This document shows positions 1 through 54,488 of a stretch of DNA of 57,922 nt, piece by piece. The notes under the pieces were generated by a model that worked only from the letters and a program-made list of their open reading frames with translations, ran no database searches and had not been told where the DNA came from. The stretch is from a virus (Duplodnaviria > Caudoviricetes), in IMG/VR virus record IMGVR_UViG_3300042834_000003, positions 1 to 57,922 of that record, one strand, 5' to 3'. Every line of letters starts with the position of its first letter. The stretch's first letter is position 1. A program made the position numbers and the translations under genes.

Positions 1-86
1 GACGTAGATCATGGGCATGGTTTCACGTGAAACACCAATGCCCCCGCTGCGTGGTACTGGGGGCAGCGGGGGCGGTGGGGTTGTGG
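1..86. repeat. 86-bp inverted repeat, left copy (hairpin + parS)
   Basis: 1-86 is the exact reverse complement of 4915-5000; contains a CCCCCGCTGC/GCAGCGGGGG stem and GTTTCACGTGAAAC. Confidence 0.95.
20..33. promoter_or_regulatory. parS: parS-type palindrome 1
   Basis: GTTTCACGTGAAAC, the actinobacterial ParB-binding consensus. Confidence 0.85.
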
Positions 87-87
87 G

Positions 88-306
88 CTAGTCCGGATCC
101 TGGAACCGCCATTGATCCACGGCGGCCATCAGGGCGGTGGCGGTGCGGTTCACCGGGGCCGGGATGGCGTCCCCGGTGAGGTGGAACGTGAGCCGATCGC
201 CGTCGTGGCCGATGCGGCTCACGGCCACGAACTCCTCACCGTCCCACGTATACAGGTGCCCGTCCCCCGGGCTGTACCGGAACGCTGGGACGTGTGGCCC
301 GCTCAC
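88..306 (-). CDS. hypothetical phage protein
   Basis: 72-aa ORF overlapping the stop of 303-581; ends directly at the inverted repeat. Confidence 0.6.
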   Translation of the reverse strand: MSGPHVPAFRYSPGDGHLYTWDGEEFVAVSRIGHDGDRLTFHLTGDAIPAPVNRTATALMAAVDQWRFQDPD

Positions 307-581
307 GCGGTGGCCTCGACGAACGCCTGAGTCAGCGCCTCGGCCAGCGTGTCGTACGCCCAGAACTCGCCCACGGTGTGGATGTAGGCATCGTCCCCGG
401 TGACCTCGCGGACGCTGTAGCGGCGCTGGCCTTCCCTCTCCTCACTGGTGACGAACCAACGCCCGTTGATCAACTCAGACTCGATCTTGGACTTGAAGAA
501 CGCCATGGTCCTGTCGCTGAACCAGTGCTGGCCAGCCTCACGGTTGGCCTTGATCACTTCCGCCATGGTCGAAAACTCCAT
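303..581 (-). CDS. conserved small phage early protein
   Basis: Start MEFSTM after a GGGAGAGATCCACATG leader; N..AG.HWF...TM.FF.S motif typical of small phage proteins. Confidence 0.75.
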   Translation of the reverse strand: MEFSTMAEVIKANREAGQHWFSDRTMAFFKSKIESELINGRWFVTSEEREGQRRYSVREVTGDDAYIHTVGEFWAYDTLAEALTQAFVEATA

Positions 582-611
582 GTGGATCTCTCCCATCCTC
601 TTCCCGTCGAT

Positions 612-625
612 GTTTCACGTGAAAC
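612..625. promoter_or_regulatory. parS: parS-type palindrome 2 (extends to a 24-bp palindrome, 607-630)
   Basis: TCGATGTTTCACGTGAAACATCGA. Confidence 0.85.
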
Positions 626-931
626 ATCGATCCGTGCCCACGGGCCGGAGTCGAACCGGCTACCAGGCGCGCACCCACCCCGAGGCGGTACCGGGGGGTT
701 GGCCCCGTGAGTCGACCGGGGCTGTCGCTGGCCGCACACCTACGTGCGCAGGGGCCTGTCGCGGCGTGAACCGCTAGGTCAATTCTATCACACAGAGATC
801 GGGAATACTGTGACCTACATCACACGGATTCAGGTGGGCAGGGGGGGGTGGGACTGGTAGTGTTGGGGTTGCAACGGAGAGTTCTGCCCACCGCGACGGG
901 GGCCGGTCCTCCTCTGGCATTCGGGATCGAT

Positions 932-945
932 GTTTCACGTGAAAC
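932..945. promoter_or_regulatory. parS: parS-type palindrome 3
   Basis: GTTTCACGTGAAAC, intergenic. Confidence 0.85.
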
Positions 946-1042
946 CTACACAGTGGCTAGGCAAGCGCCCGGGGCGGGTTCGACTCCCTACCCGGGCACG
1001 ACACGGGGCACGTGACTCCGTGCGGATCGAAGGGTGTCCACC

Positions 1043-1381
1043 ATGGACGTCAACCAGAACCCGTTCCAGCTCAGCTTGGTCTCCGTGTGGGAGTCACTGG
1101 GCCTGGACGATGAGGCCGGATTCATCGGTCCGGGTACCGGCGACCCCCTGATGTTGGGGGTCAAGGGTCTGATGGTCCTGAAGCTCACCGGGGGTGGGCT
1201 TGAGATGATCGAGCACGCGACGCCGGAACTCGCGGCGGAGTGTTTCGTGACGCTCAGGCGCCACGTCGAGGGCGTCATGGCCCTCCGCCAGCACATCGGA
1301 CAGATGTTCGATGACTTGGCACAGCCGAACGCCGGGGGCGACACCATCCCGGCCGACGGCTGGAACCCTTACTCGGTGTGA
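1043..1381 (+). CDS. hypothetical protein
   Basis: ORF with GC3-biased codons and GAAGGG upstream. Confidence 0.7.
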   Translation: MDVNQNPFQLSLVSVWESLGLDDEAGFIGPGTGDPLMLGVKGLMVLKLTGGGLEMIEHATPELAAECFVTLRRHVEGVMALRQHIGQMFDDLAQPNAGGDTIPADGWNPYSV

Positions 1382-1463
1382 CCGAGAGCCCTGGCGAGCC
1401 GTTGGACGGTTCGCCAGGGCACGCCACAAGATCACGTGGGTGATCTTGGCAGAGAGGTACCAA

Positions 1464-1607
1464 ATGTCCGAAAAGACCAGAACCGACGAAGTCGTCTGGG
1501 GAGCATGGGCTCCGGACAGCCCGCTCCCGTCACTCCCTGTGAAGTTCGGGGACGGACGGATCGTCACGGTGGGTGATCTCACGGCACTCACCAGCAGCGA
1601 GTCGTAA
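1464..1607 (+). CDS. small hypothetical protein
   Basis: AGAGG RBS before MSEKTRTD. Confidence 0.5.
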   Translation: MSEKTRTDEVVWGAWAPDSPLPSLPVKFGDGRIVTVGDLTALTSSES

Positions 1608-1738
1608 GCTGGCCCGCTGCCCTGCCCGGCCCCCTCACTGTCCGGGGCCGGGCAGGCTTGGCCCCGGGGCCGTTGAGCCTGTCCCGGGGCCGCACAACCG
1701 CCGACGGCGAGTGACCGTCGGGGGAGAGAGGCAAGACC

Positions 1739-2035
1739 ATGACCATCCAAGAGACTGGCGCCGCGTACGTGGGCGTCGACGTCGACGTCACCGACGAGCG
1801 CGTGGCGGACCTGGCCGACTTCTTGGGGGAGACCCCGGAGGAGGTTCTTGTCCAGGCGGGGCAGTTCGCCAGCGAGAACGGCGACACCGTCTCCGAGGAG
1901 CTTGACGCGGGCGAGGACATGATCGCTCTCGTTGGCACCGAAGACGCCACGGAGAGCGACGACGACGACGACGACGAAGACGAAGACGAAGACGAGCTTG
2001 AGGCTCTGGCGGAAGCTATGGAGTCTGAGTTCTAG
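1739..2035 (+). CDS. highly acidic small protein
   Basis: 98 aa with ~37 D/E, one Arg and no Lys; GAGAGG RBS. Confidence 0.75.
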   Translation: MTIQETGAAYVGVDVDVTDERVADLADFLGETPEEVLVQAGQFASENGDTVSEELDAGEDMIALVGTEDATESDDDDDDEDEDEDELEALAEAMESEF

Positions 2036-2103
2036 ATCGTCTTCGCCCAGCTCAGGTCAGGAGGTGTCCCGGGGTTCGACTCCCCGGGGCACCGCTCCCC
2101 GTT

Positions 2104-2117
2104 GTTTCACGTGAAAC
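2104..2117. promoter_or_regulatory. parS: parS-type palindrome 4
   Basis: GTTGTTTCACGTGAAACAAC (2101-2120). Confidence 0.85.
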
Positions 2118-2395
2118 AACGATGATCGACAAGGGAGATCCACATGTACGGACACGGAGAGCTACCGGCCCGGTACATCGGCCGGCGGCGTCGCCCCACC
2201 CGCAGGGACAGGCTTGGAGCCTGGCTCCGCAAGGTCGGCCGCCAGCAGTGGCACTGGTGGGGCCTCGACATCGACGACACACCGTGAGCGGCGCAGAAGC
2301 GGCGGTATACATCGTCCTGATCTTGGCGGTCACCGCCGCGATTGTCTGCATGGTCATTCACAGACCGTGATCAACCCATGCCGCCCGGGATCGAT

Positions 2396-2409
2396 GTTTC
2401 ACGTGAAAC
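2396..2409. promoter_or_regulatory. parS: parS-type palindrome 5
   Basis: GATGTTTCACGTGAAACATC. Confidence 0.85.
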
Positions 2410-2458
2410 ATCACCGGGCGGTGTGGAAGCGCCACGGTGGCGCGGGAAGGAGCAACAC

Positions 2459-2791
2459 ATGTGTGTCATGGAGGTGCGCCCGTCACAGCGGGCGAGCACC
2501 ATCGCCCAGGCACTGGCCCACAACGCCAGCACTCTGGATCGAGACCTGGACATGTTCATTGAGGTGTTGAGCGTCCGCAAGGACTTCGAGACCCTCGCCA
2601 GTGTCCAAGCCGCGCAGGCCGAAGTGCACCGCGCGTACGCGAACCTGCTGGAGATCTTCGGTGAGGAGGTCGCTGGCGAGGTAGCCGACAGTGACGGGCA
2701 CCTACCGGCTGACGATCATGGCCATGAGCGGACGTTCGTGGGGCAGGCACACCACGACGCCGGACTGGCGCGCCGCTTCGAGACGCGCTAG
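2459..2791 (+). CDS. hypothetical protein
   Basis: AAGGAG RBS before MCVMEV. Confidence 0.65.
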   Translation: MCVMEVRPSQRASTIAQALAHNASTLDRDLDMFIEVLSVRKDFETLASVQAAQAEVHRAYANLLEIFGEEVAGEVADSDGHLPADDHGHERTFVGQAHHDAGLARRFETR

Positions 2792-2817
2792 CCCCCAAGG
2801 GGGGGCCGGGCACCGAT

Positions 2818-2831
2818 GTTTCACGTGAAAC
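2818..2831. promoter_or_regulatory. parS: parS-type palindrome 6
   Basis: GTTTCACGTGAAAC, intergenic. Confidence 0.85.
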
Positions 2832-3188
2832 GGTGCCCGGCCCGGGAGGGTCGCAGGGTGGGAACCCTCCCGCCGATCCCTGCAAGACCGACGGAGAGGT
2901 TCGCCGGATGAGCGTCGAACTGTTGTCCACATTGGCTCTCACGTACGTGACTGGGCACGCCACGTACGTCACTCAGGTACCGCCGCACCGCAGGCGCCAG
3001 CACGCCGAGTATCTGCGGTCAGTGCCCAGCACGGTTTGGATCTTCTGCCTACACAACGGCAGATGGATCTTGTGGCAGGTCACCACGTACCTGCCACGCA
3101 AGCGCGGCTGAGCCCGCGCACCCGGCGGGGAGCTGTCGTGGCCCCCGCCGGGACGGAGGCTGTCACCAGGCAGCCGGGAAGGGTCGTC

Positions 3189-3527
3189 ATGACCTACGAA
3201 GAGGCGGTTGCCGCCGGGGTGTCCTGGCTCGACCAGGAGGTTCCCAACTGGCGTCAGTTGATCGACGTCGGCTCGCTGAGCCTGTACAGCCCGTACCTGT
3301 GTGTGCTCGGCCAGTTGGCCGGCGGCCAGAGTTGGGCGGTGGAGACCAACGAGTACAGCGCGTGGCCGTACCACAACGCCTTGATCCACGTTCTGCCCAC
3401 GGGTACGTGGGAGGAACGGAAGGCGTGGGCAGTTGCCCACGGGTTCGCAGTGGCGGCGTCGTTCATGGACGTCACGCCGCTGCGTGACCTCTGGGTCAAG
3501 GAGATCAACAAGTCCACGGTGGTCTGA
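3189..3527 (+). CDS. hypothetical protein, paralogue A (GVxWLD...CVLxQ...HGF family)
   Basis: Shares GV.WLD, CVL.Q, HGFA and W..EINKSTV with 3605-3946. Confidence 0.75.
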   Translation: MTYEEAVAAGVSWLDQEVPNWRQLIDVGSLSLYSPYLCVLGQLAGGQSWAVETNEYSAWPYHNALIHVLPTGTWEERKAWAVAHGFAVAASFMDVTPLRDLWVKEINKSTVV

Positions 3528-3604
3528 CCGTGGCAGCCTCCCGGCGCTGTCGTGGCGTCGGGGGGCACGAGGGGGGCCGTCGGTTCCCCAGATTGGAGAT
3601 CAAC

Positions 3605-3946
3605 ATGTGCGAGGAATGCCGCGACGAACCCCGTACGTTCACCGACGACGAGCGCGCTCAGGTTGCCCGTGGGGTGGCCTGGCTCGACGTTCAGGCGCCT
3701 GGGTGGCGCACCTACGTCCGGAACTTCAACGTGTCTAACCCGTACAACTGTGTCCTGGCACAGGTAGCCAAGACGGAGGGGTGGAACCAGGAATACGGCT
3801 CTCCGTACACGGCTGGCCTGCAGCACGCCGTGCCGATGGTGAACGACGATTGGGGCCCGGCCGCTGATTGGTCGCACACCCACGGGTTTGCCGGGGGCAA
3901 TCAGGGGTTGTGGGAGGAAGAGATCAACAAGTCCACGGTCAGCTGA
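3605..3946 (+). CDS. hypothetical protein, paralogue B
   Basis: Paralogous to 3189-3527; GGAGATCAACATG leader. Confidence 0.75.
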   Translation: MCEECRDEPRTFTDDERAQVARGVAWLDVQAPGWRTYVRNFNVSNPYNCVLAQVAKTEGWNQEYGSPYTAGLQHAVPMVNDDWGPAADWSHTHGFAGGNQGLWEEEINKSTVS

Positions 3947-4025
3947 CTGTGGCAGCCTGGCCGTGCTGTCGTGGCGCGGCCAGGCACGCGGACACCTACC
4001 AGGGTGGCCGAGATGGGAGATCAAC

Positions 4026-4352
4026 ATGAACCAAGATCAGGCTAGGACCAACTGGGCGGCGTGGGGGTTCACGTGGCTGATCGTCGTGACGATGCTGGTC
4101 ACGTTCGCTCTGTCCGCGTGCGGACCCACCGCGCCGGTAGCGTCTCGTGCGCCCGCATGTGCCTCGGAGGATGGGGCCGGTCCTGACCAGGGCTACCCGT
4201 GTCAGTGGGACTGCCGGGTGCAGGGTAACCGCCTGTGCGGACGTCGGGGTCACCCCGTGATCCTGTACGTTGACGGGCCGTGCCCGACCGCGCTACCCGA
4301 CGACACCACGTGTATCAACATCAACACGTGGTCCACGCCCGGAGCGAGCTAG
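4026..4352 (+). CDS. putative Cys-rich lipoprotein
   Basis: Hydrophobic N-terminus followed by lipobox LSAC; several further Cys. Confidence 0.65.
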   Translation: MNQDQARTNWAAWGFTWLIVVTMLVTFALSACGPTAPVASRAPACASEDGAGPDQGYPCQWDCRVQGNRLCGRRGHPVILYVDGPCPTALPDDTTCININTWSTPGAS

Positions 4353-4595
4353 CTCATGATGCCGTCCATGCGGCGCCGCGTGTACCGACGCGCGGCGCTC
4401 GCGTGGCTGGCGTCCAGGCCTCACCAGGCTCTGGAGATCCTGACCGCTGCTGGGCTGGCTCGGGAGTGGCCCACGTTCCAACGGGTCGCGTTCCGGCTAG
4501 CTCGGGAGCGGTTCCTCCGGCGCATGCCGCCGGTCGCCTAGCCACGCCCACCACTGCGAGCCTCCGCCCCGTGACCCGGGTCGGGGGCTCGCTGT

Positions 4596-4609
4596 GTTTC
4601 ACGTGAAAC
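4596..4609. promoter_or_regulatory. parS: parS-type palindrome 7
   Basis: GTTTCACGTGAAAC, intergenic. Confidence 0.85.
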
Positions 4610-4710
4610 GCCCTGAGAGCCACGCTGAGCCAAGATCCGGGGCGGGTCCTACCCCCACCCACCCCTGGGGTGTGGTAGGCTAGGGGCAGCCTCACAGAGA
4701 GGAGTTCCCC

Positions 4711-4914
4711 ATGGAACTCGACTACAGCCTGATCACGCCTGAGCTGGAAAGCCTCACCACCCAGCTAGGCAACGCCGGGCAGGAAGACACGGCCGCCCCC
4801 ATGGTCCTGATCCTCATGGCCCTGGACCGGCTACCGGAGGATGTGGCCACCCAGCTCCTCCCCATGCTGGCCACGGTCGCCACCGAGGCAGGGATCTCGA
4901 CCGAGGAGGTGTAA
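4711..4914 (+). CDS. small hypothetical protein
   Basis: GAGGAG RBS; TAGGCT -10-like box upstream; stop abuts the inverted repeat. Confidence 0.7.
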   Translation: MELDYSLITPELESLTTQLGNAGQEDTAAPMVLILMALDRLPEDVATQLLPMLATVATEAGISTEEV

Positions 4915-5000
4915 CCACAACCCCACCGCCCCCGCTGCCCCCAGTACCACGCAGCGGGGGCATTGGTGTTTCACGTGAAACCATGCCCATGATCTACGTC
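4915..5000. repeat. 86-bp inverted repeat, right copy (terminator-like hairpin + parS 8 at 4968-4981)
   Basis: Exact reverse complement of 1-86. Confidence 0.95.
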
Positions 5001-5448
5001 ACACCACGCTGCGTAGCCGTACCAGGGGTGGGAGGGGTATAGTTGATGACACAGGGGTCACCCTGTCCCCTGACTGTCCACATTGGAGTGATCCACTCTA
5101 CCCTACCAAGCGCTTGCTTGATCAAGTTGCCCTGAGCTGGGCCATAGCCTAGTGTCAGGTGGCCGACACAGGGGCAGCCGGTCGCACACATGTGCCAGGC
5201 AGCGGGGCAGGCAGCGGGGGTTTCGGATCTTGGGAGGTGGGGGCTTATGCATAGCCACCTGCCCCGACCCTGCTACTCTAAGCTACATGACTCCCAGTCG
5301 ATATGATGAGACTCGATGCCTGGGATTCTGAGGCCACGTGACGGGACGTGTCCGGGGTGCTGCCAGTATTCAACACTGCATGATCAAATGCATCTTTGGT
5401 AACACTGCATGATTGCCGAGTCAACGATCCGTAGCTGATCCTGAGGCC

Positions 5449-5769
5449 ATGACAGACCTCACCCCCACCGGGGGTATCTACGAAGACGACGTCATCGAGG
5501 CCCAGCCCCGCGTCCGGGCCCAGACGATCCGCCGCCTGGAGCTGATCTGGGAGGCGTGCGCGCCACACATCACCGGGGACGGGGGGAAACCTGATCCGCG
5601 CTTCATCGAGGCCGGGATCAGGTGCCTGGACCGGGAGATCAAGCTGTATCGCCTCGATCAGCCTCATGTGGCCGGCTCCACAGCACCAACACCCTCCGTA
5701 GAGGCTCAGCGACAGGCTGCTATCGCGGCGGTGGTCGAGTTGGAGGCCAGGATGGGTCGAGCGGACTAA
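5449..5769 (+). CDS. possible terminase small subunit-like protein
   Basis: RLELIW...IRCLDREIKLYRLDQP resembles the helical C-terminal motif of actinophage small-terminase-like proteins. Confidence 0.4.
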   Translation: MTDLTPTGGIYEDDVIEAQPRVRAQTIRRLELIWEACAPHITGDGGKPDPRFIEAGIRCLDREIKLYRLDQPHVAGSTAPTPSVEAQRQAAIAAVVELEARMGRAD

Positions 5770-6158
5770 CGGAGCTGTTGTTCCACTACGACATCGACTG
5801 TGATCCTTGAATCTTGGTGCCTGGCCTGCACAGATGGTGTTTCGGTGGAATAAGCGCTTCTGGAACAGCCTCCGGAAGTTCTCCTTTCGTATACACACGT
5901 ATCATGATCACCTTCTCCCTCTCTCTATGGCTACTTACGGAACTACTTCCAATGTTCCAAAGAGAAAAAAAAGAGAGAAAAAGAGGGGGTGACCAGCGTA
6001 TATAGATGCTGATAGTTATTCCGGGATCTGGAACAGTGTTGTTCCGCGTTGTTCCGGGCGCCCGATATGTGTCGTATCTGGGGTGGGGTAGCCCCCGGGG
6101 AGGGGTGGGTATCCGGGAGGGGTAGCCCCGGGGAGGGGTGGGTAGTAGAATTGGGGGT

Positions 6159-6413
6159 GTGAACTGGAGAGAGTGTCGTGCTCGTCTACGCGACGAGCGG
6201 CTTGCCCAGGGACTGACCCAGTGGCAGCTGTCGCAAAAGGTGGGAGTTGTCCAGTCCATGGTGTCTGACTGGGAGTATGGGCGATTTCAGCCGAAACTGG
6301 ATGTTGTGTCCCGTTGGATCGAGGCTCTAGAAACAGAGCTGACCGTCAATGTCAAGGACGGCAACATCAACTACAAGATCCACCACCGAAGGGATGGAGC
6401 AGTATGGGAGTGA
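6159..6413 (+). CDS. XRE-family HTH transcriptional regulator
   Basis: LRDERLAQGLTQWQLSQKVGVVQSMVSDWEYGRFQP. Confidence 0.85.
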   Translation: MNWRECRARLRDERLAQGLTQWQLSQKVGVVQSMVSDWEYGRFQPKLDVVSRWIEALETELTVNVKDGNINYKIHHRRDGAVWE

Positions 6414-6883
6414 ATGAGGCGCGTATGGCCCTGTGGGCCGACGCACTGGAATCGGGGGAGTACGAGCAGGGGCCGGGCCGCCTGTGTAGTTGGCGTTTGC
6501 CTGACCCCCGGAAGTACTGCTGCCTCGGCGTGGCCGTGATGGTCGCGTACAAGAACGGCTTCCGGATCACTGAGGACCTGCTCAGGGACCGGGAGATTCA
6601 ATTGGAGCCGTGGGAGATGGCCCTCGTCACCAATCCTGAGTCGGATGTACCTAATGATCTGCTTTGGCAGGTTATCGGCAACGGCACTCTCCACGAGTGG
6701 TACGAGGTCGCGGCCTGGTATGGCGTGGAACTCGAAGACGACCGGGCCTTCATCCTCAGCGAGGAATCGGACGCGGACGGTTACCCGATCGCGGCCGTGG
6801 AGGCCAACGACAAGCTCGGCTGGGACTTCCCCCGGATCGCGCAGGCGCTCAGGGCCCGATACATCGCAGGAGGCCAGTCATGA
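6404..6883 (+). CDS. CCLGV-motif phage protein, copy 1
   Basis: W.DALESG.Y.QG.G.L...YCCLGVA...ANDK..W.F..IA. Confidence 0.8.
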   Translation: MGVNEARMALWADALESGEYEQGPGRLCSWRLPDPRKYCCLGVAVMVAYKNGFRITEDLLRDREIQLEPWEMALVTNPESDVPNDLLWQVIGNGTLHEWYEVAAWYGVELEDDRAFILSEESDADGYPIAAVEANDKLGWDFPRIAQALRARYIAGGQS

Positions 6884-7299
6884 GCCCCCAGGACCCGGAG
6901 TACCCGTACAAGGCCAGGGTCCGGATGTGGCGGGATGCCCTGCTCTCGGGGGACTACCCCCAGGGGCAGGGATACCTCCGTATAGAACGCTGTGTCAGCG
7001 ATCAGGACCCGACACGGGAATGGAAGTACTGCTGTCTGGGCGTCGCTACAGATGTTGCGTTGAAGAACGGGCTCACGAGCTTCGGCTTCGTAGACGAGCG
7101 CGGGGCGCAGAACCCTGCCGGCAACAGTGTCCTGTGGCCTGAGGTGGCCGAGTGGTACGGATTTGAGAGTTCCAACCCTGAAGTAGCGTCCGGTCTCACC
7201 GCCTGTTCCGCCAACGACAACTCCATGTGGACCTTCACCATGATCGCCGCAAGTCTGAGTATCCATTACCGCCTCGACGAGCCTGAGGAGAACGAATGA
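6880..7299 (+). CDS. CCLGV-motif phage protein, copy 2
   Basis: WRDALLSGDYPQGQGYL...YCCLGVA...ANDN..WTF..IA; ATGA overlap. Confidence 0.8.
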   Translation: MSPQDPEYPYKARVRMWRDALLSGDYPQGQGYLRIERCVSDQDPTREWKYCCLGVATDVALKNGLTSFGFVDERGAQNPAGNSVLWPEVAEWYGFESSNPEVASGLTACSANDNSMWTFTMIAASLSIHYRLDEPEENE

Positions 7300-7805
7300 C
7301 TGTGAACGTGGAGCGGGTCTGGCTCTGGGCGGAGGCCCTGGAGTCAGAAAAGTATCGGGACAAGCAGGGATACGGGGCCCTCTGGCGCATATACCCGCCC
7401 GGTATTGGATACAGCTACTGCTGCCTCGGTGTAGCCATCGAGGTGGCCTTCGCCAACGGGGTCCGTTACACCAACGAGGATCTAGACGACCTAGAGGAAA
7501 TGGTCCGCCTAGATATTGGAACGGACTACAGCCAAGTAAGTGATCCCTGGGAACTTCCCACTCGCGAGAATGCCACCCTGGGCGGCTGGTCCAAGGTCAG
7601 GGAATGGTATGGATTCGATAATTCGGATCCATATGTTGGATACATACCTTGCGCAGACGCTGAATGCTCCAATGCAGATTGCACCGGTGGCGTAGACGCT
7701 AACCCAATCTGCGCCACGGGAGCTAACGACGACGCTTTCTGTACCTTCCCTCAAATCGCCGCAATGCTTCGGAAGCACTACCCTAAGGAGTCCACTAGTG
7801 AGTGA
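7296..7805 (+). CDS. CCLGV-motif phage protein, copy 3
   Basis: WAEALESEKY..KQGYGAL...YCCLGVA...ANDD..CTF..IA. Confidence 0.8.
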   Translation: MTVNVERVWLWAEALESEKYRDKQGYGALWRIYPPGIGYSYCCLGVAIEVAFANGVRYTNEDLDDLEEMVRLDIGTDYSQVSDPWELPTRENATLGGWSKVREWYGFDNSDPYVGYIPCADAECSNADCTGGVDANPICATGANDDAFCTFPQIAAMLRKHYPKESTSE

Positions 7806-8718
7806 ACCGAATAAGCAACGTCTCGGTCTGTGGGCCGACGCCTTGGAGTCGAAGCAATACGCCCAAGGTGCTGCTCAATTGCAGATCGAGGACTGCACCC
7901 CCATCGACGATCCCGCCGAACTCAAAGACCCCACCAAGCGGTACTGCTGTCTTGGCGTTGCCATCCTTGTGGCGCTGGATAACGGGTTCGTCTTCACGGA
8001 TGATGCCTTGGCCCTCATGGGGATCATTGACGTAGCAGCTGAAGACCTTCCAGAGACTGGCGATGAGATCCTCAGCCATCTCCGGGGGCAAGGTGCCGGT
8101 GAGGATCTCTGGAGGCCGGTGGCGCAATGGTATGGGTTTGGTTTTGTACCCAGCACCAACGGTAACGGAGAAGACAGCGGGGTGAATCCTGTGATTGGTG
8201 TCAGCGAAGAAGGTGCCCCCGTCAAGGCCATAGAAGCCAACGATGACCGTAACTGGACGTTCCCGATGATCGCCAAGGGAATCCGCAAGCAGTACCTGGA
8301 GCTGTCAGTCTTCGACAAGGAGAACCGGATGAGGGTCATCGTCACCGGGTCATCCAACTGGGAAGGCGTCTACGCAGAGGGCCGCGTCTACCGGGCCCTG
8401 GACCTCCTGGAGGCCCTCATGGAGCTGTCTGAGGGGGCACTGACCATCGTGCACCGTGGTCGGCCCAGAGGCGTTGACGCCATCGCGGACACGTGGGCGC
8501 GGCGGCGGGGGATCGAGCCGGTGATCTACGAGACCGACTGGGAAAGGTACGGGATCACGGCCAACACGGTCAGCAACGGCGAGATGTTGAACTCGGGGGC
8601 TGATCTGATCCTGGCGTTCGTCCGCGAGGAGGCAGCCGAGCCGGCCACCAGCGACCTGATCCTGGCAGCCCGCAACGAGGGGATCACCACCGTCGTCACG
8701 AAGTGGGTGGATGTGTGA
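7798..8718 (+). CDS. CCLGV-motif protein copy 4, in frame with a C-terminal SLOG/DUF2493-like domain (internal start 8329)
   Basis: N-terminal CCLGVA family motifs; from MRVIVTGSSNW..IVHRG..RGVDAIA..W..NGEML...ADLILAF a DUF2493/YspA SLOG-like domain; AAGGAG before ATG 8329. Confidence 0.75.
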   Translation: MSEPNKQRLGLWADALESKQYAQGAAQLQIEDCTPIDDPAELKDPTKRYCCLGVAILVALDNGFVFTDDALALMGIIDVAAEDLPETGDEILSHLRGQGAGEDLWRPVAQWYGFGFVPSTNGNGEDSGVNPVIGVSEEGAPVKAIEANDDRNWTFPMIAKGIRKQYLELSVFDKENRMRVIVTGSSNWEGVYAEGRVYRALDLLEALMELSEGALTIVHRGRPRGVDAIADTWARRRGIEPVIYETDWERYGITANTVSNGEMLNSGADLILAFVREEAAEPATSDLILAARNEGITTVVTKWVDV

Positions 8719-15512: not shown

Positions 15513-15875
15513 ATGGCACTACCAGAACCGAAGCCCGGTGAACTAACCGTGGAGGCCGATCGTGACTTGGCCAAGCTCCTGAAGGAGGCCGCCGCCGCTG
15601 AGAAGGCGTGGCGGGAGAGGAAGGAGCAACTCAGGAAGAAGATCCAAGAGTCCATGGGTGAAGCCACGGCGGCCCTGGTCGATGGTGAGTTGGCGTTCAC
15701 TAATCGTTACAAGAACACCTACCGGGAGAAGGATCTCCGCACCGACTACCCGGACCTGACCGACCACTACGTCCATGACGTGGTGGTGCCGACGTTCGAC
15801 ATGGCCCAGTTCGCAGCGGTGCACCCGGACATCGCGAAGCATTACCAGACCCGGGCCTTCATCGAGGTTAAGTGA
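15513..15875 (+). CDS. hypothetical phage protein
   Basis: GAGGAG RBS; coiled-coil followed by a beta-rich region. Confidence 0.7.
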   Translation: MALPEPKPGELTVEADRDLAKLLKEAAAAEKAWRERKEQLRKKIQESMGEATAALVDGELAFTNRYKNTYREKDLRTDYPDLTDHYVHDVVVPTFDMAQFAAVHPDIAKHYQTRAFIEVK

Positions 15876-16231
15876 ACGCATCCAAGCAGAAGGGGACCCG
15901 GTGGGAGTCAGCCATCGTCGACTACCTCCTTCAGTGCGGTGTTCCCGGAGCTGAACGTCGAGCCCTGTCTGGGTCCGAGGACCGAGGGGACATTGCCGGT
16001 ATAGCTCGCGTTGTCATTGAGGCGAAGAACGCCAGGACGATGTTGCTGGCGAGCTGGGTCGACGAGGTTGAAACTGAGAGGAAGAACGCGAACGCAGAGA
16101 TAGGGGTGATATGGCACCACCGCCGGGGGAAAGGATCCCCCGGCGACGGGTACGTGACCATGACGGGCGATACGTTCATGCGACTGCTCATGATCGCCGG
16201 TTACATCGATCCACCGGAGCCGAAGGAGTAA
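15872..16231 (+). CDS. Holliday junction resolvase (Hjc-like PD-(D/E)xK)
   Basis: SKQKGTRWES...DRGDIAG...VIEAKN. Confidence 0.85.
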   Translation: MNASKQKGTRWESAIVDYLLQCGVPGAERRALSGSEDRGDIAGIARVVIEAKNARTMLLASWVDEVETERKNANAEIGVIWHHRRGKGSPGDGYVTMTGDTFMRLLMIAGYIDPPEPKE

Positions 16232-17674: not shown

Positions 17675-17746
17675 CGCGGGTTGGCGCAGCGGTAGCGTGC
17701 CGGGCTCATAACCCGGAAGTCACCGGTTCGAATCCGGTACCCGCCA
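17675..17746 (+). tRNA. tRNA-Met(CAT), initiator (fMet) type
   Basis: Cloverleaf; C1:C72 mismatch; anticodon stem CCGGG/CCCGG with loop CTCATAA; GGTTCGAATCC T arm; no encoded CCA. Confidence 0.9.
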
Positions 17747-17806
17747 CGGTGAACGTCTCCGAGGGGAGTCGCCACAACCCTGGCCCGGGGTCACCAAAGG
17801 GCACCT

Positions 17807-17877
17807 GGGTTGTTAGCTCAGCGGATGAGCCCGGCACTTTAGCCGGAGGCAGGTGGGTTCGAGTCCCACACAATCCA
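17807..17877 (+). tRNA. atypical tRNA-like element (6-nt anticodon loop ACTTTA)
   Basis: Acceptor GGGTTGT/ACAATCC, D arm GCTC/GAGC, T arm GTGGG-TTCGAGT-CCCAC; non-canonical anticodon arm CCGGC-ACTTTA-GCCGG. Confidence 0.65.
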
Positions 17878-17938
17878 CGAGGAGGTTGTGGGTGACTACC
17901 GTCTTAATTTGGAACCCTCACTCAACGGAGAGGAACTC

Positions 17939-18301
17939 ATGAAGAAGCTTGCCCTCGGTGCCGCGATGGCCATGGTGGCAATCGCGGCATCCCTGTTCAT
18001 AGCCAGCCCAGCCTCAGCGGATGCTGGCTCCCAGTGCGGAGCCAACCGGTTCTGTGTGTACACGAACTCCAACGGTGGCGGAGCTCAGTACTTCTGGACC
18101 GATCCACATGGCTGTATCCCAACGCAGGGACAGTTCAATGACAGCATCACGTCGTTCAGCAACCACACCGGTCGCGCGCTGGTCATGTTCAAGGACGGTG
18201 GGTGTAGCGGTGGTGCCTGGTTCGTCGGCAGTGCCGAGACGACCAACCATCTGGAATGGACCACGTTCAACGACGTGGCTTCATCGTTCCAGATAAGTTA
18301 A
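17939..18301 (+). CDS. secreted peptidase inhibitor I36 / beta-gamma-crystallin-like protein
   Basis: Signal peptide ending ASPASA; C...FCVY.NSN..G, FNDSITSF.N, FNDVASSF. Confidence 0.8.
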   Translation: MKKLALGAAMAMVAIAASLFIASPASADAGSQCGANRFCVYTNSNGGGAQYFWTDPHGCIPTQGQFNDSITSFSNHTGRALVMFKDGGCSGGAWFVGSAETTNHLEWTTFNDVASSFQIS

Positions 18302-30155: not shown

Positions 30156-30597
30156 CCCTCTTCAGGGAACGTCGACGAACCTCTCTAGCCGCATGACAGG
30201 CTCGGCAATTACGAGATCCATTTTTCATTAAGGTATTCTTCTCATCATAAAGATGTCCCCGTGGACAATGAGTCTTGACTGCGTTAACCCTGCCACTACC
30301 ACTTCGACCGCGAGATTCTCTGTCTCGAATGTTGTCTTGAGCCGAACCGATATAAAGATGGCTCGGGTTACAACAGGGCGGGTTGTCACATTTATGGCAA
30401 ACGAAATCGGATCTCTCTAACTTCTCATTGGCTAGCTTTGCCATCAACCAACGATGGGACGACCAGATCTTATCGATTCCAGATCCAAAACGTCCATGTC
30501 CAGAAATAGCTCTCGATGCAATCCAAGGCCAGCACTCTTCCGGACCTGCTGAAGAATCCACATTGGCCCAGAATCGTTCAGCAATGTGCTGCTCCAT
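30139..30597 (-). CDS. HNH homing endonuclease
   Basis: VCHKCDNPPCCNPSHL...DN; C-terminal KTHCPRGH...CRAC; lower GC. Confidence 0.9.
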   Translation of the reverse strand: MEQHIAERFWANVDSSAGPEECWPWIASRAISGHGRFGSGIDKIWSSHRWLMAKLANEKLERSDFVCHKCDNPPCCNPSHLYIGSAQDNIRDRESRGRSGSGRVNAVKTHCPRGHLYDEKNTLMKNGSRNCRACHAAREVRRRSLKRGGRHR

Positions 30598-32654
30598 CAG
30601 ATAGTCCTCACTGCCAGGCGGGTGTCACGAGCGAGCAGGCCACCAGTGATGCCACTGGCCACTGCTGATCCGGTGGTCTGGGCCTGCTGGGTGGTCGGTA
30701 GAGCACCTTGGAAACCAACCTGGATCGAGTTGGCCCCGAACACGATGTTGGAGACCGCGTCGTTGGACACAGACTGCAACGTGGGTGCCTCCATCGCGAT
30801 ACCTCGGGCGAAGTCTCGGATCAGGTTCTGTCCCCGGTAGAGGCTGTACCCCTTACCGGATAGGGGTCCGTCCTCGGCAGGTGATCCGGGCAGGAACTGA
30901 GTGATCTTGTGGATCATCTCGCTCCCTGTGTTGGCCAGGAAGCCGAACATGGAACGGATGCCGTTGATGAACCCCTGGATCAGGTTCTGACCGGCACGAA
31001 ACAGCAGACCAGCCAGGTTCCCGAGGGCCGCCGTGATCTGGGCCGGGAGCTGGGTGACCAGGAGGAGGAAACGTCCCTTCCCGTTGTTCAGGGACTCCCA
31101 CAGGTGGATGAAGAAGTTGGCGATCGCATGCCAGGCGTCTGCGATACCGGTCCCCAGCGCGAAGACGAAGTCCCGGATAGCCCCACCAGCCACATCTAGC
31201 CAGTGCCACACCGTCTCGGCCGCGAAGCCGATAGCTGGAATGATTCCATTCTTGATGAACTCGGCTGTGGTCTCCAGTAGCCCGAACAACAGGAAGATCA
31301 GGGCGATGAGGCCGGTGGTCACTTCGAGGGCGATGATCACAAAGTGGACGAGACCCTCAAAAGCCTTCCGCCCGAAGTCACTGCCCAGCAGGAAGGTGAG
31401 TAGCTCGACGTCTTTGACGATCTCGTCAAGGACCTTCTGGCCACCGGCTTTGTTGAGCTGGTCAGCGAAGACGAAGATGAAGTCGATCAGGGCCCCGACG
31501 AGTTCGATGAGGGACTGGAAGGACTTCTGCATATCCATCAACCACTTGGTGGTCGCTGGATCCTTGGAGACGTTGGTGAAGAACACCCCGAGCTGGAACA
31601 GGATGCCCCCGAGGATCTTCCCCAGCACAGTGAGAAACGGAATCATCGCTGTGGCGAACTGGATCAGACCGGTCAGGAATGTGACCAGGGAGTCGCCAAA
31701 CGTTCGCAGGAAGTTCCGGGTGGCCGGGATGATCTCTTTGACGAAGGTGACAAACGTCGACGAGGCGAAGAACAGCCCGATCTTCTCGAACAAGTCACCC
31801 AGTGATGTAGCGATACTGGCCAGGCGTCCATCGGTCAGCCATGCGAAAGACTTAGCGATCTTGGGAACCGTGTCCCCGAACGCCTTGAAGAACGACTCCT
31901 GGAGCTGTGCCTTCAACACACTGAAGAAGTCCCGCAGCGGTAGCAGAGTCTTCACGAACGCCTGAGCGGACGGTGTGAGCCCAGCTATAGCCGTCTGGAG
32001 TTCCTTGGCATTCTTGGCTGCGAACGCTCCCTGGATAGCGGTGCCGACACCCTTAAAGGCCAGGAACAACACGCCGGCCTGGAGTGCTATGGCCCCGATC
32101 AGGGTTGGGATGGTGGCGATGACAGCTACCAGAGAGTTGGCAGCTTGGATGGCACCAACGATCAGACCGATGAGCGCTGTAATGGCCGGGATGAGGACAG
32201 CGATCAGGGGGGACTTGCCGGAGACGTTGAAGATGGATCCAACGGCGTCAGCGATGCCCTGCCCGACCTTGCCGAATAGGCCACCACTGCTGGAGGCGGC
32301 CTGCTCGAAGGCGGTACCAATGTCTTCTTCGATGTCATGGGCGACTCGACTGATGAACCGACCGTTGCGCCCCCGTCGGTTCCAGCGGAGGTTGGGAACG
32401 AAGTCCAACGGTCGCCGGTTCACTTCACGGGTCAAAGTGCGCCCGATGTCCCGGCCCACTGTGGGCCCGTTCTTGTCTACCTCTTTGGCGATAGAAGTGG
32501 AGAGGGTATCCCCGATGTCCTTGCCGGCCTTATCGACTTCCTTCTCTACGTCCTTGAGTTCTTTACGGATCCCGCTGGCGACTTCCTCGTCGAAGTCCTT
32601 GTCTACGCGGCCATGGACATCTACCCATGCCTCGCCCAGACTGTCCATCGCCAT
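30597..32654 (-). CDS. tape measure protein
   Basis: 685 aa helical, Ala/Gly/hydrophobic; C-terminal LPGSPAEDGPLSG. Confidence 0.85.
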   Translation of the reverse strand: MAMDSLGEAWVDVHGRVDKDFDEEVASGIRKELKDVEKEVDKAGKDIGDTLSTSIAKEVDKNGPTVGRDIGRTLTREVNRRPLDFVPNLRWNRRGRNGRFISRVAHDIEEDIGTAFEQAASSSGGLFGKVGQGIADAVGSIFNVSGKSPLIAVLIPAITALIGLIVGAIQAANSLVAVIATIPTLIGAIALQAGVLFLAFKGVGTAIQGAFAAKNAKELQTAIAGLTPSAQAFVKTLLPLRDFFSVLKAQLQESFFKAFGDTVPKIAKSFAWLTDGRLASIATSLGDLFEKIGLFFASSTFVTFVKEIIPATRNFLRTFGDSLVTFLTGLIQFATAMIPFLTVLGKILGGILFQLGVFFTNVSKDPATTKWLMDMQKSFQSLIELVGALIDFIFVFADQLNKAGGQKVLDEIVKDVELLTFLLGSDFGRKAFEGLVHFVIIALEVTTGLIALIFLLFGLLETTAEFIKNGIIPAIGFAAETVWHWLDVAGGAIRDFVFALGTGIADAWHAIANFFIHLWESLNNGKGRFLLLVTQLPAQITAALGNLAGLLFRAGQNLIQGFINGIRSMFGFLANTGSEMIHKITQFLPGSPAEDGPLSGKGYSLYRGQNLIRDFARGIAMEAPTLQSVSNDAVSNIVFGANSIQVGFQGALPTTQQAQTTGSAVASGITGGLLARDTRLAVRTI

Positions 32655-37526: not shown

Positions 37527-39251
37527 CTACGGGCAGGTGAGAGTGCCTTGGCTAGTGGTCTTACCACTCGGGCAGATCGGCACCGTGTACACACGGGAGA
37601 CAGGACACATCTGGACCATCGCCCAGCCGGTCTCCGTGAACAGGTGCGTGACCTGGTTGGTGGCCAGCTTCGTCGAGTCGTAGACCGAGTTGAGAGTGAT
37701 CACGTCGTTGACCGCCCGGATCCAGGTGCCGGCCGGGTAGACCAGGAACTGGAGGCTGGACGGCAGCGAGCTGATCGGGGTGTCGGCACCGGGAACACCA
37801 GACGCGGCACAGGTCGCGAAGGCGTCCTGCCAGTCGTAGATGTACTGGACCCGAGCACCACGAGCCGTGAACGCGGCCGTGATAGCCGAGTCCGCCAGGG
37901 TGATGGCCTCCGGACCACTGCCTGTGGCGTTGCGTCGGATCCAGTCCGCCCGCATCTGGGCACCGATCCAGAACGGCATGATCACTTCGAGGGTGGCGCT
38001 GCGTTGCATACGCAGCCGGTACTTGATGTCCACAATGGCCATCTCGACCGCACTCAGGACCTGGCTGACGGTTGAACCATCAGTAGCCCATGGGGCAGCA
38101 GCGGTCAGTGACACCGCCGTAGAGCCGGCCACAACATCGGCGACCTGCTCACGGTTGATCTGGTGCGCCGACGCGGCCAGAGCACCACGGGTGAAGGTGG
38201 CCGTGAACTCCGGGTAGCCCCGGATGGCCAGGATGTTGCCGGTCAGGCAGAGACCCGTGACACCCAGCCGGGTGTCAATGAAGCTCGGGCACGGGATCTC
38301 CAGGCAGGTCTTGACTGTGCCGGCCGCAACTTGGGCCTCAGTCAGGTCGAAGAAGCCCGACGGGCTCACACAGTTGCCGCCACCGAAGATCGAGTCGAAC
38401 TCGATACCAGTGTTGTGCCGGATGCCACCACGACGGGCCTGGACCTCAGGGAAGTCCGCGAGACCGTCGGTGGTGATCTGGAGACAGATGTCGTAGTCCG
38501 TCTCCGACGGGGCACACCATCCCTGCGCCGCGACGAGGGCATCCCGCTCCGGGTGCTGAGTGGCCAGCTCCTTGGTGCGCAGCTCCACCGACCGGATCAG
38601 GGACCCACCCGGGAGGCGGCTCTCGTCAGCAACGTGGAGGAGCTTGGCGTAGTCGGTGGAGTCACCCTGACACGAGAACTCGTCCGGGTAGTTGCGGACC
38701 AGTTGAGCCACCGGGTAGGAAACCGGACCCGACGTGGCACCACGAGACATGGCATTGTGACTGGCCGAACGGGACTCGAACGCCTTCGCCACGTCCAGCA
38801 TGGTCGGCAGAGCCTGGCCGGCCTCGTAGTTGGGTACCCCAGCCGAGGCGACCAGAGCCGAGTACACAGGGCGGGTGTTCTGCTGGTTGACCGGCACCGG
38901 GTTGGCCCCGGTGACGATGTCGGAGACGCTGACGGTGATGGTCTCCGTAGCTGGGGTCGTTGACGCGGAGGCCACGACAGCTTCAGGCTCAGCGGGAGGG
39001 GTGACTGGCTCCGGCTCAGCGGTGGCAGCAGCGAAGCGAGCTGCTCGATCCTCCCGGGCCGAGATGATGGCGGGAACGGTCTCGCGGGTGAAGAGCTGCA
39101 GGGCTTCCAGCTGGTCAATCTCGTCGTCGGTGACAGACTCGACGGTGACTGTGGACTGCAGTTCAGCGAACTCCGCCGCCGCAATGTTGGCAAGGTCCTG
39201 GAGACCTGCGACTGAGAACTGATCAAGGTTCTCAGGGATCTGAAAAGGCAT
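37527..39251 (-). CDS. major capsid protein
   Basis: 574 aa; LVAAQGWCAPSETDYD, RGGI, GNIL..RGYPE, YPAGTW typical of actinophage capsids. Confidence 0.85.
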   Translation of the reverse strand: MPFQIPENLDQFSVAGLQDLANIAAAEFAELQSTVTVESVTDDEIDQLEALQLFTRETVPAIISAREDRAARFAAATAEPEPVTPPAEPEAVVASASTTPATETITVSVSDIVTGANPVPVNQQNTRPVYSALVASAGVPNYEAGQALPTMLDVAKAFESRSASHNAMSRGATSGPVSYPVAQLVRNYPDEFSCQGDSTDYAKLLHVADESRLPGGSLIRSVELRTKELATQHPERDALVAAQGWCAPSETDYDICLQITTDGLADFPEVQARRGGIRHNTGIEFDSIFGGGNCVSPSGFFDLTEAQVAAGTVKTCLEIPCPSFIDTRLGVTGLCLTGNILAIRGYPEFTATFTRGALAASAHQINREQVADVVAGSTAVSLTAAAPWATDGSTVSQVLSAVEMAIVDIKYRLRMQRSATLEVIMPFWIGAQMRADWIRRNATGSGPEAITLADSAITAAFTARGARVQYIYDWQDAFATCAASGVPGADTPISSLPSSLQFLVYPAGTWIRAVNDVITLNSVYDSTKLATNQVTHLFTETGWAMVQMCPVSRVYTVPICPSGKTTSQGTLTCP

Positions 39252-48274: not shown

Positions 48275-49002
48275 TAGCGCCCCTCCTCGTTTCTGATGGC
48301 CACATCGCACCGACAGCCGATGACATTGTCTGGGCTCCCGCTCGGGTCTCCCGGGAACATGAGCGGCTCATCGCAGACCTGGAACGGCATAAAGATGGGG
48401 ACGGTCTGGTTGTTGGCAGCCTGGTGACATGGACGTACACGCTGATCTTGCTCCGTACGCCAGGTCTTGTTCAAGACCCTTCCGGTGATTCGAGACTGTT
48501 CGATACCGGCGGCCATAGTCCCGGCCCCATAGGCTCGGGTTACCTCAGTGACAGCGATGGTGTGCGCCCGTCCCGGCCACCGATCGCTACCCGTGTAGGA
48601 CAAGACACGATCGACTCTGTCAGCGAGCTGATCTAGAGACTCACCAGCGTTGATACCGTCGGTCAGCTCAGCAAAGATCAGGTTGGCCACTTCATCCGGG
48701 ATCCGCACCAACAGGTTCCGGACGTCAGCCAGGTAGGCCACGACGAAGGCATGCCGGGACACTGGCGGCACATCGGTGGCCTCCGACCAGGCGCCCAGCG
48801 CAATCTCCCCGATGGTGGTGAGGATCGTGTCCACCTCCCGGTCCCACATCGGCTGCGTGGCGTAGACAGCGGTCGGGTCAGGGACCATCTTGTGACTGCG
48901 GAACGGGGCCATCACCGCCTCCCGGGCACGGTCAAGCCACCGCCGGAGTGCGCTCGATACGACGCTTTCCAGGCGGGACTCATCGGATGCCCTACTCCCC
49001 AT
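48274..49002 (-). CDS. MuF-like minor head (morphogenesis) protein
   Basis: RA.TIAVTE..KTW...D.RVR..H...FPGDP..SPDNVIGCRC. Confidence 0.85.
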   Translation of the reverse strand: MGSRASDESRLESVVSSALRRWLDRAREAVMAPFRSHKMVPDPTAVYATQPMWDREVDTILTTIGEIALGAWSEATDVPPVSRHAFVVAYLADVRNLLVRIPDEVANLIFAELTDGINAGESLDQLADRVDRVLSYTGSDRWPGRAHTIAVTEVTRAYGAGTMAAGIEQSRITGRVLNKTWRTEQDQRVRPCHQAANNQTVPIFMPFQVCDEPLMFPGDPSGSPDNVIGCRCDVAIRNEEGR

Positions 49003-52655: not shown

Positions 52656-52829
52656 ATGATCACAGTACGGGCGTTCTACTGGTGGACGCAAGACTGAGCT
52701 GGTATCCCAGGGGTGGGTGGGGGTAGCATGGGCTTCTCACACACAGCTCGCTGGTCCGAGTGGGTGAGAGAACAGGGGATCGGGTCCCTCCGTGCCCGGT
52801 CCCCTGTTTCCATCGGAGAGGAAACGGAT

Positions 52830-54012: not shown

Positions 54013-54074
54013 GTCGTACCTCCCCGCTAGAGTGATCACACCCCACCGTGGGGTGGGAAGAGGGGAGGGTCCAG

Positions 54075-54488
54075 TTGACTGCCAAAGAGGAGCAGCTCGG
54101 CCGCGACATCGTGGCTAGCGGGCGCCTCAAACAGCTCCGGGAGGAGCTTGGCCTGACCCGGTCAGCCATGGCGGAACTGCTACACACGTCACCGATCACT
54201 TACACCTCCTGGGAGAAGAAACCGGAGGTGAACCTGTGGGCGGAGACCGCGACCAGGCTCGGCCGGTTCTACAGCAACTCTGTGGCGGAGCTTGACTACG
54301 TTCGGTCAGTCCTGAAGATCGACATGACGGACCTGGTTCCCCTGTACATCGCCTCGACCATGATGGGGATCTCCCAGGAGCTGCTCCTGAAGCAGTACCG
54401 CGACGAGAAGTTCAATGCCGTGGATCTTGGCATCCTCGGCCTGTGGGTGGAGAAGAAGGTCCTCAACGTCCTTAGGCAGGGCGAATGA
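54075..54488 (+). CDS. HTH DNA-binding protein
   Basis: LKQLREELGLTRSAMAELLHTSPITYTSWE. Confidence 0.8.
   Translation: MTAKEEQLGRDIVASGRLKQLREELGLTRSAMAELLHTSPITYTSWEKKPEVNLWAETATRLGRFYSNSVAELDYVRSVLKIDMTDLVPLYIASTMMGISQELLLKQYRDEKFNAVDLGILGLWVEKKVLNVLRQGE

Follow-up and report, generated by a model that had tools for sequence, protein, structure and literature searches.

Host-type parS sites clustered in a repeat-flanked cassette of a phage contig, and the ParB protein that may read them

Why would a phage carry, many times over at one end of its genome, a site that belongs to the centromere of a bacterial chromosome? The question is raised by IMG/VR record IMGVR_UViG_3300042834_000003, a siphovirus-like phage by gene content, whose 57,922 nucleotides (the whole record, classed linear, with a CheckV completeness of 89%) were analyzed here and are referred to as the window. 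Eight copies of the palindrome GTTTCACGTGAAAC, the parS site of actinobacterial chromosomes, lie within its first 5 kb, in and around a cassette of small genes flanked by inverted repeats. The explanation we lean toward, while holding it tentatively, is that the palindromes are parS sites that mimic the host centromere and load host ParB, with phage DNA then being positioned or distributed by host ParA/SMC. A first-pass annotation had recorded the sites and proposed that host ParB is hijacked; in what follows its observation is confirmed and its interpretation is partly supported.

Number, sequence and match to host chromosomal sites

Exact matches to GTTTCACGTGAAAC start at positions 20, 612, 932, 2104, 2396, 2818, 4596 and 4968, all inside 1-4981, and a search that allowed up to two mismatches returned the same eight sites and nothing further in the 57,922 bases (shuffle mean 0.10). 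Base composition leads to an expectation of about 1e-4 sites per window, and exact matches in 100 dinucleotide-preserving shuffles had a mean of 0.00 and a maximum of 0. None of the eight overlaps any of the 14 gene calls in 1-5000, which are our own and drew on ribosome-binding sites, third-position GC content and inspection of the sequence; were gene h to start at the TTG at 2342 instead of the ATG at 2459, site 2396 would be coding. Non-coding DNA makes up 1,549 of these 5,000 bases (31%), and seven site sequences are independent, since sites 20 and 4968 represent one sequence in the two arms of an inverted repeat, giving 0.31^7 or approximately 3e-4 for a wholly non-coding placement. The first-pass annotation had claimed eight perfect sites, all intergenic, with none noticed in the remaining ~53 kb, and these scans bear it out.

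The sites (unstranded) are as follows.

20-33: parS copy 1, in the left inverted-repeat arm, with the same sequence as copy 8
612-625: parS copy 2, at the center of a 24-bp perfect palindrome, 15 nt upstream of the ATG of gene a (596, minus strand)
932-945: parS copy 3, upstream of gene c, in the gap 597-1042 between the divergent genes
2104-2117: parS copy 4, a 22-bp palindrome directly after a GC-rich hairpin, with the ATG of gene f 26 nt further on
2396-2409: parS copy 5, a 20-bp palindrome between genes g and h
2818-2831: parS copy 6, inside a longer GC-rich inverted repeat between genes h and i
4596-4609: parS copy 7, between genes m and n, with a hairpin immediately before it
4968-4981: parS copy 8, in the right inverted-repeat copy, after a terminator-like hairpin

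Relative to the canonical 16-bp parS tGTTtCACGTGAAAca, as given in the table of a review (PMC7022226), all eight sites match at least 15 of the 16 positions and three (612, 2104, and 2396) match all 16. An invariant T precedes the 14-mer at every site when each is oriented by its neighboring gene. Outside the core, arms of the form GGGCA...TGCCC extend the palindrome at sites 2818 and 4968, and the flank GGATCGAT is common to sites 612, 932 and 2396. This common flank, together with the 77% likeness of 922-969 to 2386-2433, leads us to conclude that some parS copies came from local duplication. A 20-nt extended site gave seven single-copy matches in IMG/VR, with no close relative among them.

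The same parS is listed for M. smegmatis, S. coelicolor and C. glutamicum in the review table (PMC7022226). We also scanned one genome from each of five actinobacterial genera, these being candidate hosts. A Streptomyces sp. had 18 exact 14-mers at 4.41-4.63 Mb of its 9.03-Mb chromosome, Micromonospora and Nonomuraea each had four in 3 kb, Streptosporangium had four in 2.3 kb, and Tsukamurella had one. That the palindrome is the chromosomal parS of actinobacteria, as the first-pass annotation had stated, is upheld by both the table and the clustered copies. The genera with clustered 14-mers are those whose prophages carry the nearest capsid relatives of the phage: relatives of its head protein in bacterial genomes (30-40% identity, 38 loci) are mostly in Streptomyces and Micromonospora, with others in Nonomuraea, Streptosporangium, Gordonia and Tsukamurella. 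The closest named phage is Actinoplanes phage phiAsp2 (head-protein identity 45%), and other named-phage matches are to phages of Gordonia, Mycobacterium, Microbacterium, Arthrobacter and Streptomyces. Near-identical cassette DNA is present in soil metagenome runs from several studies. Based on the phage matches, the bacterial head-protein loci and the soil contigs, the host is an actinobacterium, probably a soil actinomycete.

A cassette between inverted repeats

The sites punctuate, and flank, the following features.

1-86: left repeat copy, inner 86 nt (unstranded); that it is cut by the contig stop is by analogy with relatives G027, G013 and G014
87-4914: unique cassette between the repeat copies (unstranded), 65.6% G+C versus ~60% in the rest of the window
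88-596, minus strand: genes b (88-306) and a (303-596; DUF7447, phrog_4655), read leftwards from the divergent gap
1043-4914, plus strand: twelve small genes, c to n, read rightwards
4915-5956: right repeat copy (unstranded), which by metagenome contigs and depth probably reaches ~5956 and takes in a gene at 5413-5769

Thus the cassette comprises two divergent units split by the gap 597-1042. Only one of its 14 proteins had a family match above the cut-off (gene a: DUF7447, 2e-19; phrog_4655), there being none for genes c to n, and no DNA-binding domain was found in any of the 14. Genes j (3189-3527) and k (3605-3946) are paralogs whose products both end in EINKSTV, gene l has what we read as a signal peptide with a lipobox-like LSAC, the gene e product is very acidic, and genes b and m have homologs in the cassettes of related phages.

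Is the cassette a genuine part of the phage? The contig starts within a perfect 86-nt inverted repeat (1-86 versus 4915-5000) and the cassette is ~5% above the rest of the window in G+C, both of which could be expected of an artefact, whether through chimeric joining to host origin DNA or through folding back of the contig end. We consider this very improbable on several grounds. No origin-region genes are present, the genes being small phage-type orphans, two of which (b and m) have homologs in relatives' cassettes. Contigs of four metagenome runs, three of them from further studies, share the cassette and its overlap with the repeat: in one run (X1) a contig spans 57-4944 and overlaps both repeat arms by 30 nt, and a second contig continues without a break from 4914/4915, reaching 5956 in three of the four runs and 5656 in run X3. 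There was no branch at 5000 in the contigs of the four runs, whose only differences from the window, over 6 kb, were four single-base changes outside the sites. Depth over 5001-5600 was approximately twice that of the cassette in each run (22 vs. 12.6, 8.0 vs. ~4, 10.5 vs. 5-8, and 10.9 vs. 4-6). Finally, a repeat-flanked cassette recurs in relatives G027, G013/G017 and G014. The suspicion that the 5' part might be chimeric with a host oriC region is therefore dispelled by the phage-type genes, the homologs of b and m, and the same DNA in the soil runs of three further studies; and the two copies of the 20/4968 site are probably both real.

The relatives also suggest why assemblies stop where they do. 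The G027 contig opens with a stretch (1-103) that recurs in inverted form at 4360-4462, and its right end, 59120-59237, pairs likewise with 5768-5885; by these alignments its ends bracket a repeat of ~1.5 kb. A 113-nt arm closes G013, with its partner 3.3 kb further in, and G014 has an arm at its start. G017, G024 and G055 have inverted repeats at their termini (123, 123 and 127 nt, respectively), lengths that we take to be assembler word lengths. As judged from these contigs, phages of this lineage have a unique 3-5 kb cassette with an inverted repeat of ~1-1.5 kb on either side, at which assemblies break, and records of relatives that are called 100% complete from their terminal repeats probably lack the cassette.

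A segment flanked by inverted repeats is reminiscent of the invertible G segment of Mu and C segment of P1. No serine invertase of the Gin/Cin type was found, there being no Resolvase or Phage_integrase match in the window. Genes b and m are reversed relative to the post-repeat gene in G013 and G027, an arrangement that we did not count as inversion of the cassette, because identical arms leave the orientation chosen by an assembler unfixed. A 43-nt repeat-arm sequence had no match in the metagenome contigs. Contigs that touched only 19-41 nt around a site (joints 628 to 2817 and 629 to 2395, and most loose ends) were set aside as other parS-bearing DNA in the samples.

Each site is in a gap between genes, usually with a GC-rich hairpin just before it and the next ribosome-binding site 12-110 nt further on. 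The arrangement of a terminator followed by a site also occurs in G027, G013 and the Arthrobacter phage Emotion (see below), and the terminator may guard a nucleation site from transcription or may point to a transcriptional role. The latter possibility is the basis of a further explanation, that the palindromes are operators of some other phage regulator, or RNA or terminator elements, whose identity with parS is incidental. In addition to the wholly non-coding placement and the order of hairpin, site and ribosome-binding site, this explanation draws on the fact that several palindromes have flank-specific extensions, to 20-24 bp. We nevertheless regard it as improbable, as the chance that a private operator would match the universal parS at 15 of 16 positions is approximately 4^-7, and the exact 14-mer is present in unrelated phages at unrelated places, including inside structural genes. 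Moreover, in seven relatives that were scanned closely (six whole and G013 in part) neither a copy with one or two mismatches nor a further repeated palindrome of 12 or 14 nt was present, and their 10-nt palindromes were not clustered in a cassette. The lack of a DNA-binding domain in the 14 cassette proteins and of Rfam families on 1-8000 also argues against it. A sigma-70 promoter scan of 1-6400 returned no sites, although such a scan is ill-suited to actinobacterial promoters.

Two types of hairpin were observed in these gaps. Genes i, j and k are each followed by a GC-rich hairpin (3118-3155, 3535-3570, and 3955-3990) whose conserved loop is CTGTCGTGG, and a hairpin with this loop also precedes the single parS of G013 (at about 18030-18060); it looks like a lineage-specific intergenic element, whether a terminator or a processing site. 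The sequence GGTTCGACTCC, which resembles a tRNA T-arm, is in three hairpins near parS sites (640-660 on the minus strand, 975-995, and 2062-2082), none of which was called as a tRNA by ARAGORN, whose only calls were at 17.7 kb.

Relatives, isolates and the candidate readers

Are the sites shared by other phages, and which ParB would read them? Relatives were collected from IMG/VR via the head protein (78 records, 36-77% identity, 3.23 Mb in total), and five of them contain exact sites, seven in all versus 0.006 expected. G013 has one site, in its cassette, after the hairpin noted above. The single site of G027 is at the center of a 28-bp palindrome, 1 nt past the stop codon of the large terminase. 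G055 has three in a stretch of 90 bp that follows the large terminase gene and precedes the next gene, and G062 and G084 have one each. A relative further removed, G006 (with an identity of 36% in the head protein, 29% in the portal and 35% in the large terminase), has three canonical 16-mers (7146, 7669, and 8257) that are all coding, in the same frame, and encode DVSRET; one ends a small gene and two are inside the following 380-residue head-region gene. As they are coding, the G006 sites speak against an operator bound at promoters.

Among phage isolates, a 31-nt query around site 612 had matches in 447 of 50,697 records of the isolate collection, a query that favors similar flanks and hence does not make the figure a census. 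They include phages of Listeria (87), Microbacterium (67), Clostridium (67), Arthrobacter (49), Bacillus (44), and Gordonia (26). Whole-record scans of selected isolates gave the following.

Arthrobacter phage Emotion (45 kb): 7 exact sites, no ParB_N match
Arthrobacter phage VroomVroom (43 kb): 6 exact sites, no ParB_N match
Arthrobacter phage Ranunculus (70 kb): 3 exact sites, ParB_N at 18 bits, below the cut-off
Gordonia phage Woes (74 kb): 2 exact sites, no ParB_N match
Microbacterium phage OneinaGillian (62 kb): 1 exact site, no ParB_N match
Microbacterium phage Metamorphoo (54 kb): 1 exact site, ParB_N at 37.9 bits
Bacillus phage phi29 (19 kb): no exact site, 4 with one mismatch, no ParB_N match

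Emotion, VroomVroom and Woes are complete isolates, and the two annotated "DNA binding proteins" of Emotion are sigma-factor-like. Where the DNA of Emotion and VroomVroom aligns it is 75-83% identical, and the exact 14-mer is kept at four homologous positions while the flanks differ. In both phages some sites directly follow an intrinsic-terminator-like hairpin with a T run (Emotion 19680 and 20042; VroomVroom 19115), and the two Emotion copies share 30 nt on each side, indicative of a duplicated unit. Outside the isolates, low-G+C IMG/VR contigs of 12-18 kb carry four to six exact sites and no ParB_N, one of them being related to small Clostridium and Bacillus phages. The 31-nt query also matched several places in very small genomes: "bajarodino virus 3", a 6.2-kb microvirus (12 places, taken as both strands of ~6 sites), Tortoise microvirus 39 (two), and an 8-kb unannotated phage contig from human feces (seven).

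These data lead us to favor the host's chromosomal ParB as the reader, because of the match at 15 of 16 positions and the recurrence of the site at unrelated places in unrelated phages that have no ParB-fold gene; chromosomal ParB is the one protein common to all of these hosts. A host reader is likely in particular because complete phages with six to seven exact sites have no ParB_N domain. On this basis, host ParB dimers would nucleate on the phage parS sites after infection, become closed clamps with CTP bound, and spread across the cassette and into neighboring DNA. The resulting assembly on phage DNA would resemble a partition complex and would be treated by host ParA/SMC like a chromosome origin, with phage genomes being positioned in, or distributed into, daughter cells, hyphal compartments or spores. 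Host ParB binding and every step after it, including the benefit to the phage, are what we infer from sequence.

Host ParB might instead bind with a different payoff, namely manipulation of the host or of the cassette. The array could be a sponge that strips ParB from the host origin, as eight sites multiplied by the phage copy number would compete with the 1-18 exact sites per chromosome in the five that were scanned, and this would disturb segregation, SMC loading, division or sporulation. Alternatively, a ParB coat could silence or insulate the cassette, as the ParB-like KorB does on plasmid RK2. The window has more exact sites than the whole Micromonospora, Nonomuraea and Streptosporangium genomes (four each), the sites mark gene boundaries within a single cassette and are also present in both of its flanking repeat arms, and many-site phages also infect Arthrobacter, which does not sporulate. 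A misfit with the regulation of a single cassette is that the sites of other phages are scattered and some are coding. We consider sponge or silencing the main alternative, if a rather unlikely one, followed by a reader encoded by the phage itself.

The latter possibility arises from what the contig leaves out. A six-frame search of the window at E <= 1 had no match to ParB_N, HTH_ParB, AAA_31 (ParA), Phage_integrase or Resolvase, and a self-contained parABS module of the P1 or RedRock type was not found, there being no parA or parB by the sites and no such domains in the cassette proteins. The earlier statement that parA and parB are absent therefore stands for the window; it does not extend to the phage, because the contig (89% complete) breaks within a primase-helicase gene and relatives encode ParB_N proteins at just this location.

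56466-57922, plus strand: Prim-Pol/D5_N primase-helicase, cut by the contig end at residue 485

One metagenome contig (4,122 nt; 99.97% identity across 3,317 nt) lengthens the gene by 805 nt, taking in the P-loop without closing the frame. We estimate the whole phage genome to be about 64 kb and terminase-packaged, with about 6 kb (~11%) outside the window. Fourteen of the 50 relatives that were searched have a ParB_N match, including seven close ones (G012, G013, G014, G017, G021, G024, and G027); in the five of these with genes placed (G013, G014, G017, G024, and G027) it follows the primase region. In G017, whose large terminase is 74% identical, an 804-residue primase-helicase is directly followed by a 260-residue ParB_N protein and then by a DUF6551 protein. 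By analogy, the phage may encode a ParB-fold protein in the ~6 kb beyond the contig end, and the array could be the loading zone of such an orphan phage ParB. G013 and G027, which have the ParB_N gene together with one parS each, are consistent with this, as is G009, an unrelated complete 60-kb viral record.

At 2198-3248 of G009 one canonical parS overlaps the start of a 347-residue ParB_N frame, ~150 nt upstream of the ParB_N match. We read this frame as a ParB with a GxxRxxA motif and a helix-turn-helix; on that reading G009 would have an orphan ParB of its own, accompanied by a host-type site.

The ParB_N protein of the relatives is, as judged from its sequence, a poor candidate for a parS reader. 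It scores exactly at the Pfam cut-off (26.3 bits), has no HTH_ParB match and shows no similarity to the G009 ParB, and a profile of four homologs matched solved structures (ParB, Noc, KorB, and archaeal ParB-nuclease chains) at positions 4-121 only. In addition, Emotion, VroomVroom and Woes are complete and have sites without ParB_N, and G055 and G006 have three sites each with no ParB_N in the contig. We thus view a phage-encoded reader as doubtful, though it remains a rival to the hijack of host ParB that had been proposed earlier, of which the part that fares well is the host reader.

Several points weigh against centromere mimicry through host ParB and account for our caution. Most relatives (73 of 78) have no site, and neither does phiAsp2, the nearest named phage; this is an upper bound on true absence, as many of the contigs lack the cassette by construction, and it indicates that the trait is dispensable. 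The ~10% of the genome outside the contig is exactly where seven relatives encode a ParB_N-domain protein, and G013 and G027, in which both that gene and the cassette are captured, have one parS each. Non-coding sites between a hairpin and a ribosome-binding site would also suit a role in transcription. Finally, phages with many sites infect hosts that do not sporulate, which weakens the analogy with spore entrapment. Since sites are equally frequent in phages of the non-sporulating Arthrobacter and Gordonia, spore entrapment is not a general explanation.

The other genes by which the window was recognized as that of a siphovirus-like phage are listed below.

15872-16231, plus strand: RusA-like resolvase
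30597-32654, minus strand: tape measure
37527-39251, minus strand: major head protein
48992-50899, minus strand: portal
51228-52691, minus strand: large terminase
54048-54488, plus strand: HTH_3 regulator
54485-55330, plus strand: PD-(D/E)XK exonuclease

The HTH_3 regulator is conserved in the six relatives that were compared in full, three of which have no parS in the contig, a distribution that we count in favor of host ParB as the reader. Three to four tandem paralogs occupy 6314-8718, the last with a YAcAr (SLOG) domain, and in the region of 17675-17878 and 17888-18301 there are a tRNA-Met gene, an unusual tRNA-like gene whose anticodon was called as two bases, and then a homolog of the peptidase inhibitor family I36 (2e-11). 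Positions 1-6000 had no Megablast match in the phage collection, and single-protein IMG/VR searches confirmed no relatives of 7798-8718 or of gene a.

Known parallels and implications

How does this arrangement compare with known systems? The nearest precedent is phi29, for which PMC2731898 describes five parS sites and use of the host Spo0J (ParB) for entrapment in spores. Both phages have several host-type parS sites and no ParB found in the sequence analyzed, with the host reader documented for phi29 (PMC2731898) and inferred here. There are clear differences: phi29 is a 19-kb protein-primed podovirus, whereas the window is from an actinophage of ~64 kb that is packaged by a terminase; all eight sites of the window are perfect and packed in 5 kb, whereas those of phi29 are spread along its genome; and no counterpart of the Spo0A box is known for this phage. 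In the literature that we searched, phage use of host ParB is documented for the phi29 family only, where it is tied to endospore formation, and no report of a host-type parS in an actinobacterial phage was found (subscription journals and supplementary files being outside the coverage). What is new relative to phi29 is the actinophage lineage, the presence of perfect sites only, their placement in and around a cassette flanked by inverted repeats, and their density, which at eight in 5 kb was the highest seen in this analysis.

The array shares its 14-mer with the origin parS clusters of Streptomyces, Mycobacterium and Corynebacterium, and its local density is similar to that of Micromonospora, Nonomuraea and Streptosporangium (four sites in 2.3-3 kb). 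Unlike chromosomal clusters, the phage sites are in gaps between small orphan genes, with no parAB, dnaA or origin-region genes adjoining. Dedrick and colleagues reportedly described, in 2016, extrachromosomal prophages of actinobacteria that have their own ParA and ParB and phage-specific parS repeats; such cassettes are also an instance of a partition-type cis site on an actinophage, and they differ from the window in that it contains no ParA or ParB domain and its site is the host's own. KorB of plasmid RK2 is a ParB-family CTP clamp, encoded by the plasmid, whose palindrome (an operator that differs from parS) is present in copies at operon boundaries. The many copies of one palindrome at gene boundaries are similar here, although no such regulator is in the window. 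A parallel of a different type is that of alphaproteobacterial phages, which reportedly carry CtrA boxes, the sites of a host cell-cycle regulator (PMC9437464). In both cases the state of the host would be read via a host DNA-binding protein, which is a transcription factor for those phages and a segregation clamp here.

The window and the isolates together suggest that exploitation of host ParB is common in actinobacterial phages, including those of non-sporulating hosts. If this is true, the roles of ParABS would widen to that of a host factor exploited by viruses, parS would provide a marker of phage-host interaction that can be read from sequence only, and SEA-PHAGES isolates on Arthrobacter, Gordonia and Microbacterium would be tractable test systems. 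A bolder version, which we put forward as speculative, is that centromere mimicry is widespread in actinophages and independent of sporulation, and that the eight-site array captures the pool of ParB-CTP clamps, both hitching phage DNA to ParA transport and collapsing the host origins. With similar reserve, we suggest that the repeat-flanked array would in that event outnumber the host's own centromere, and that phage DNA would be transported to the poles, hyphal tips or prespore compartments. Were this bolder version to hold, ParB would be at once a host-dependency factor and an attack point for these phages.

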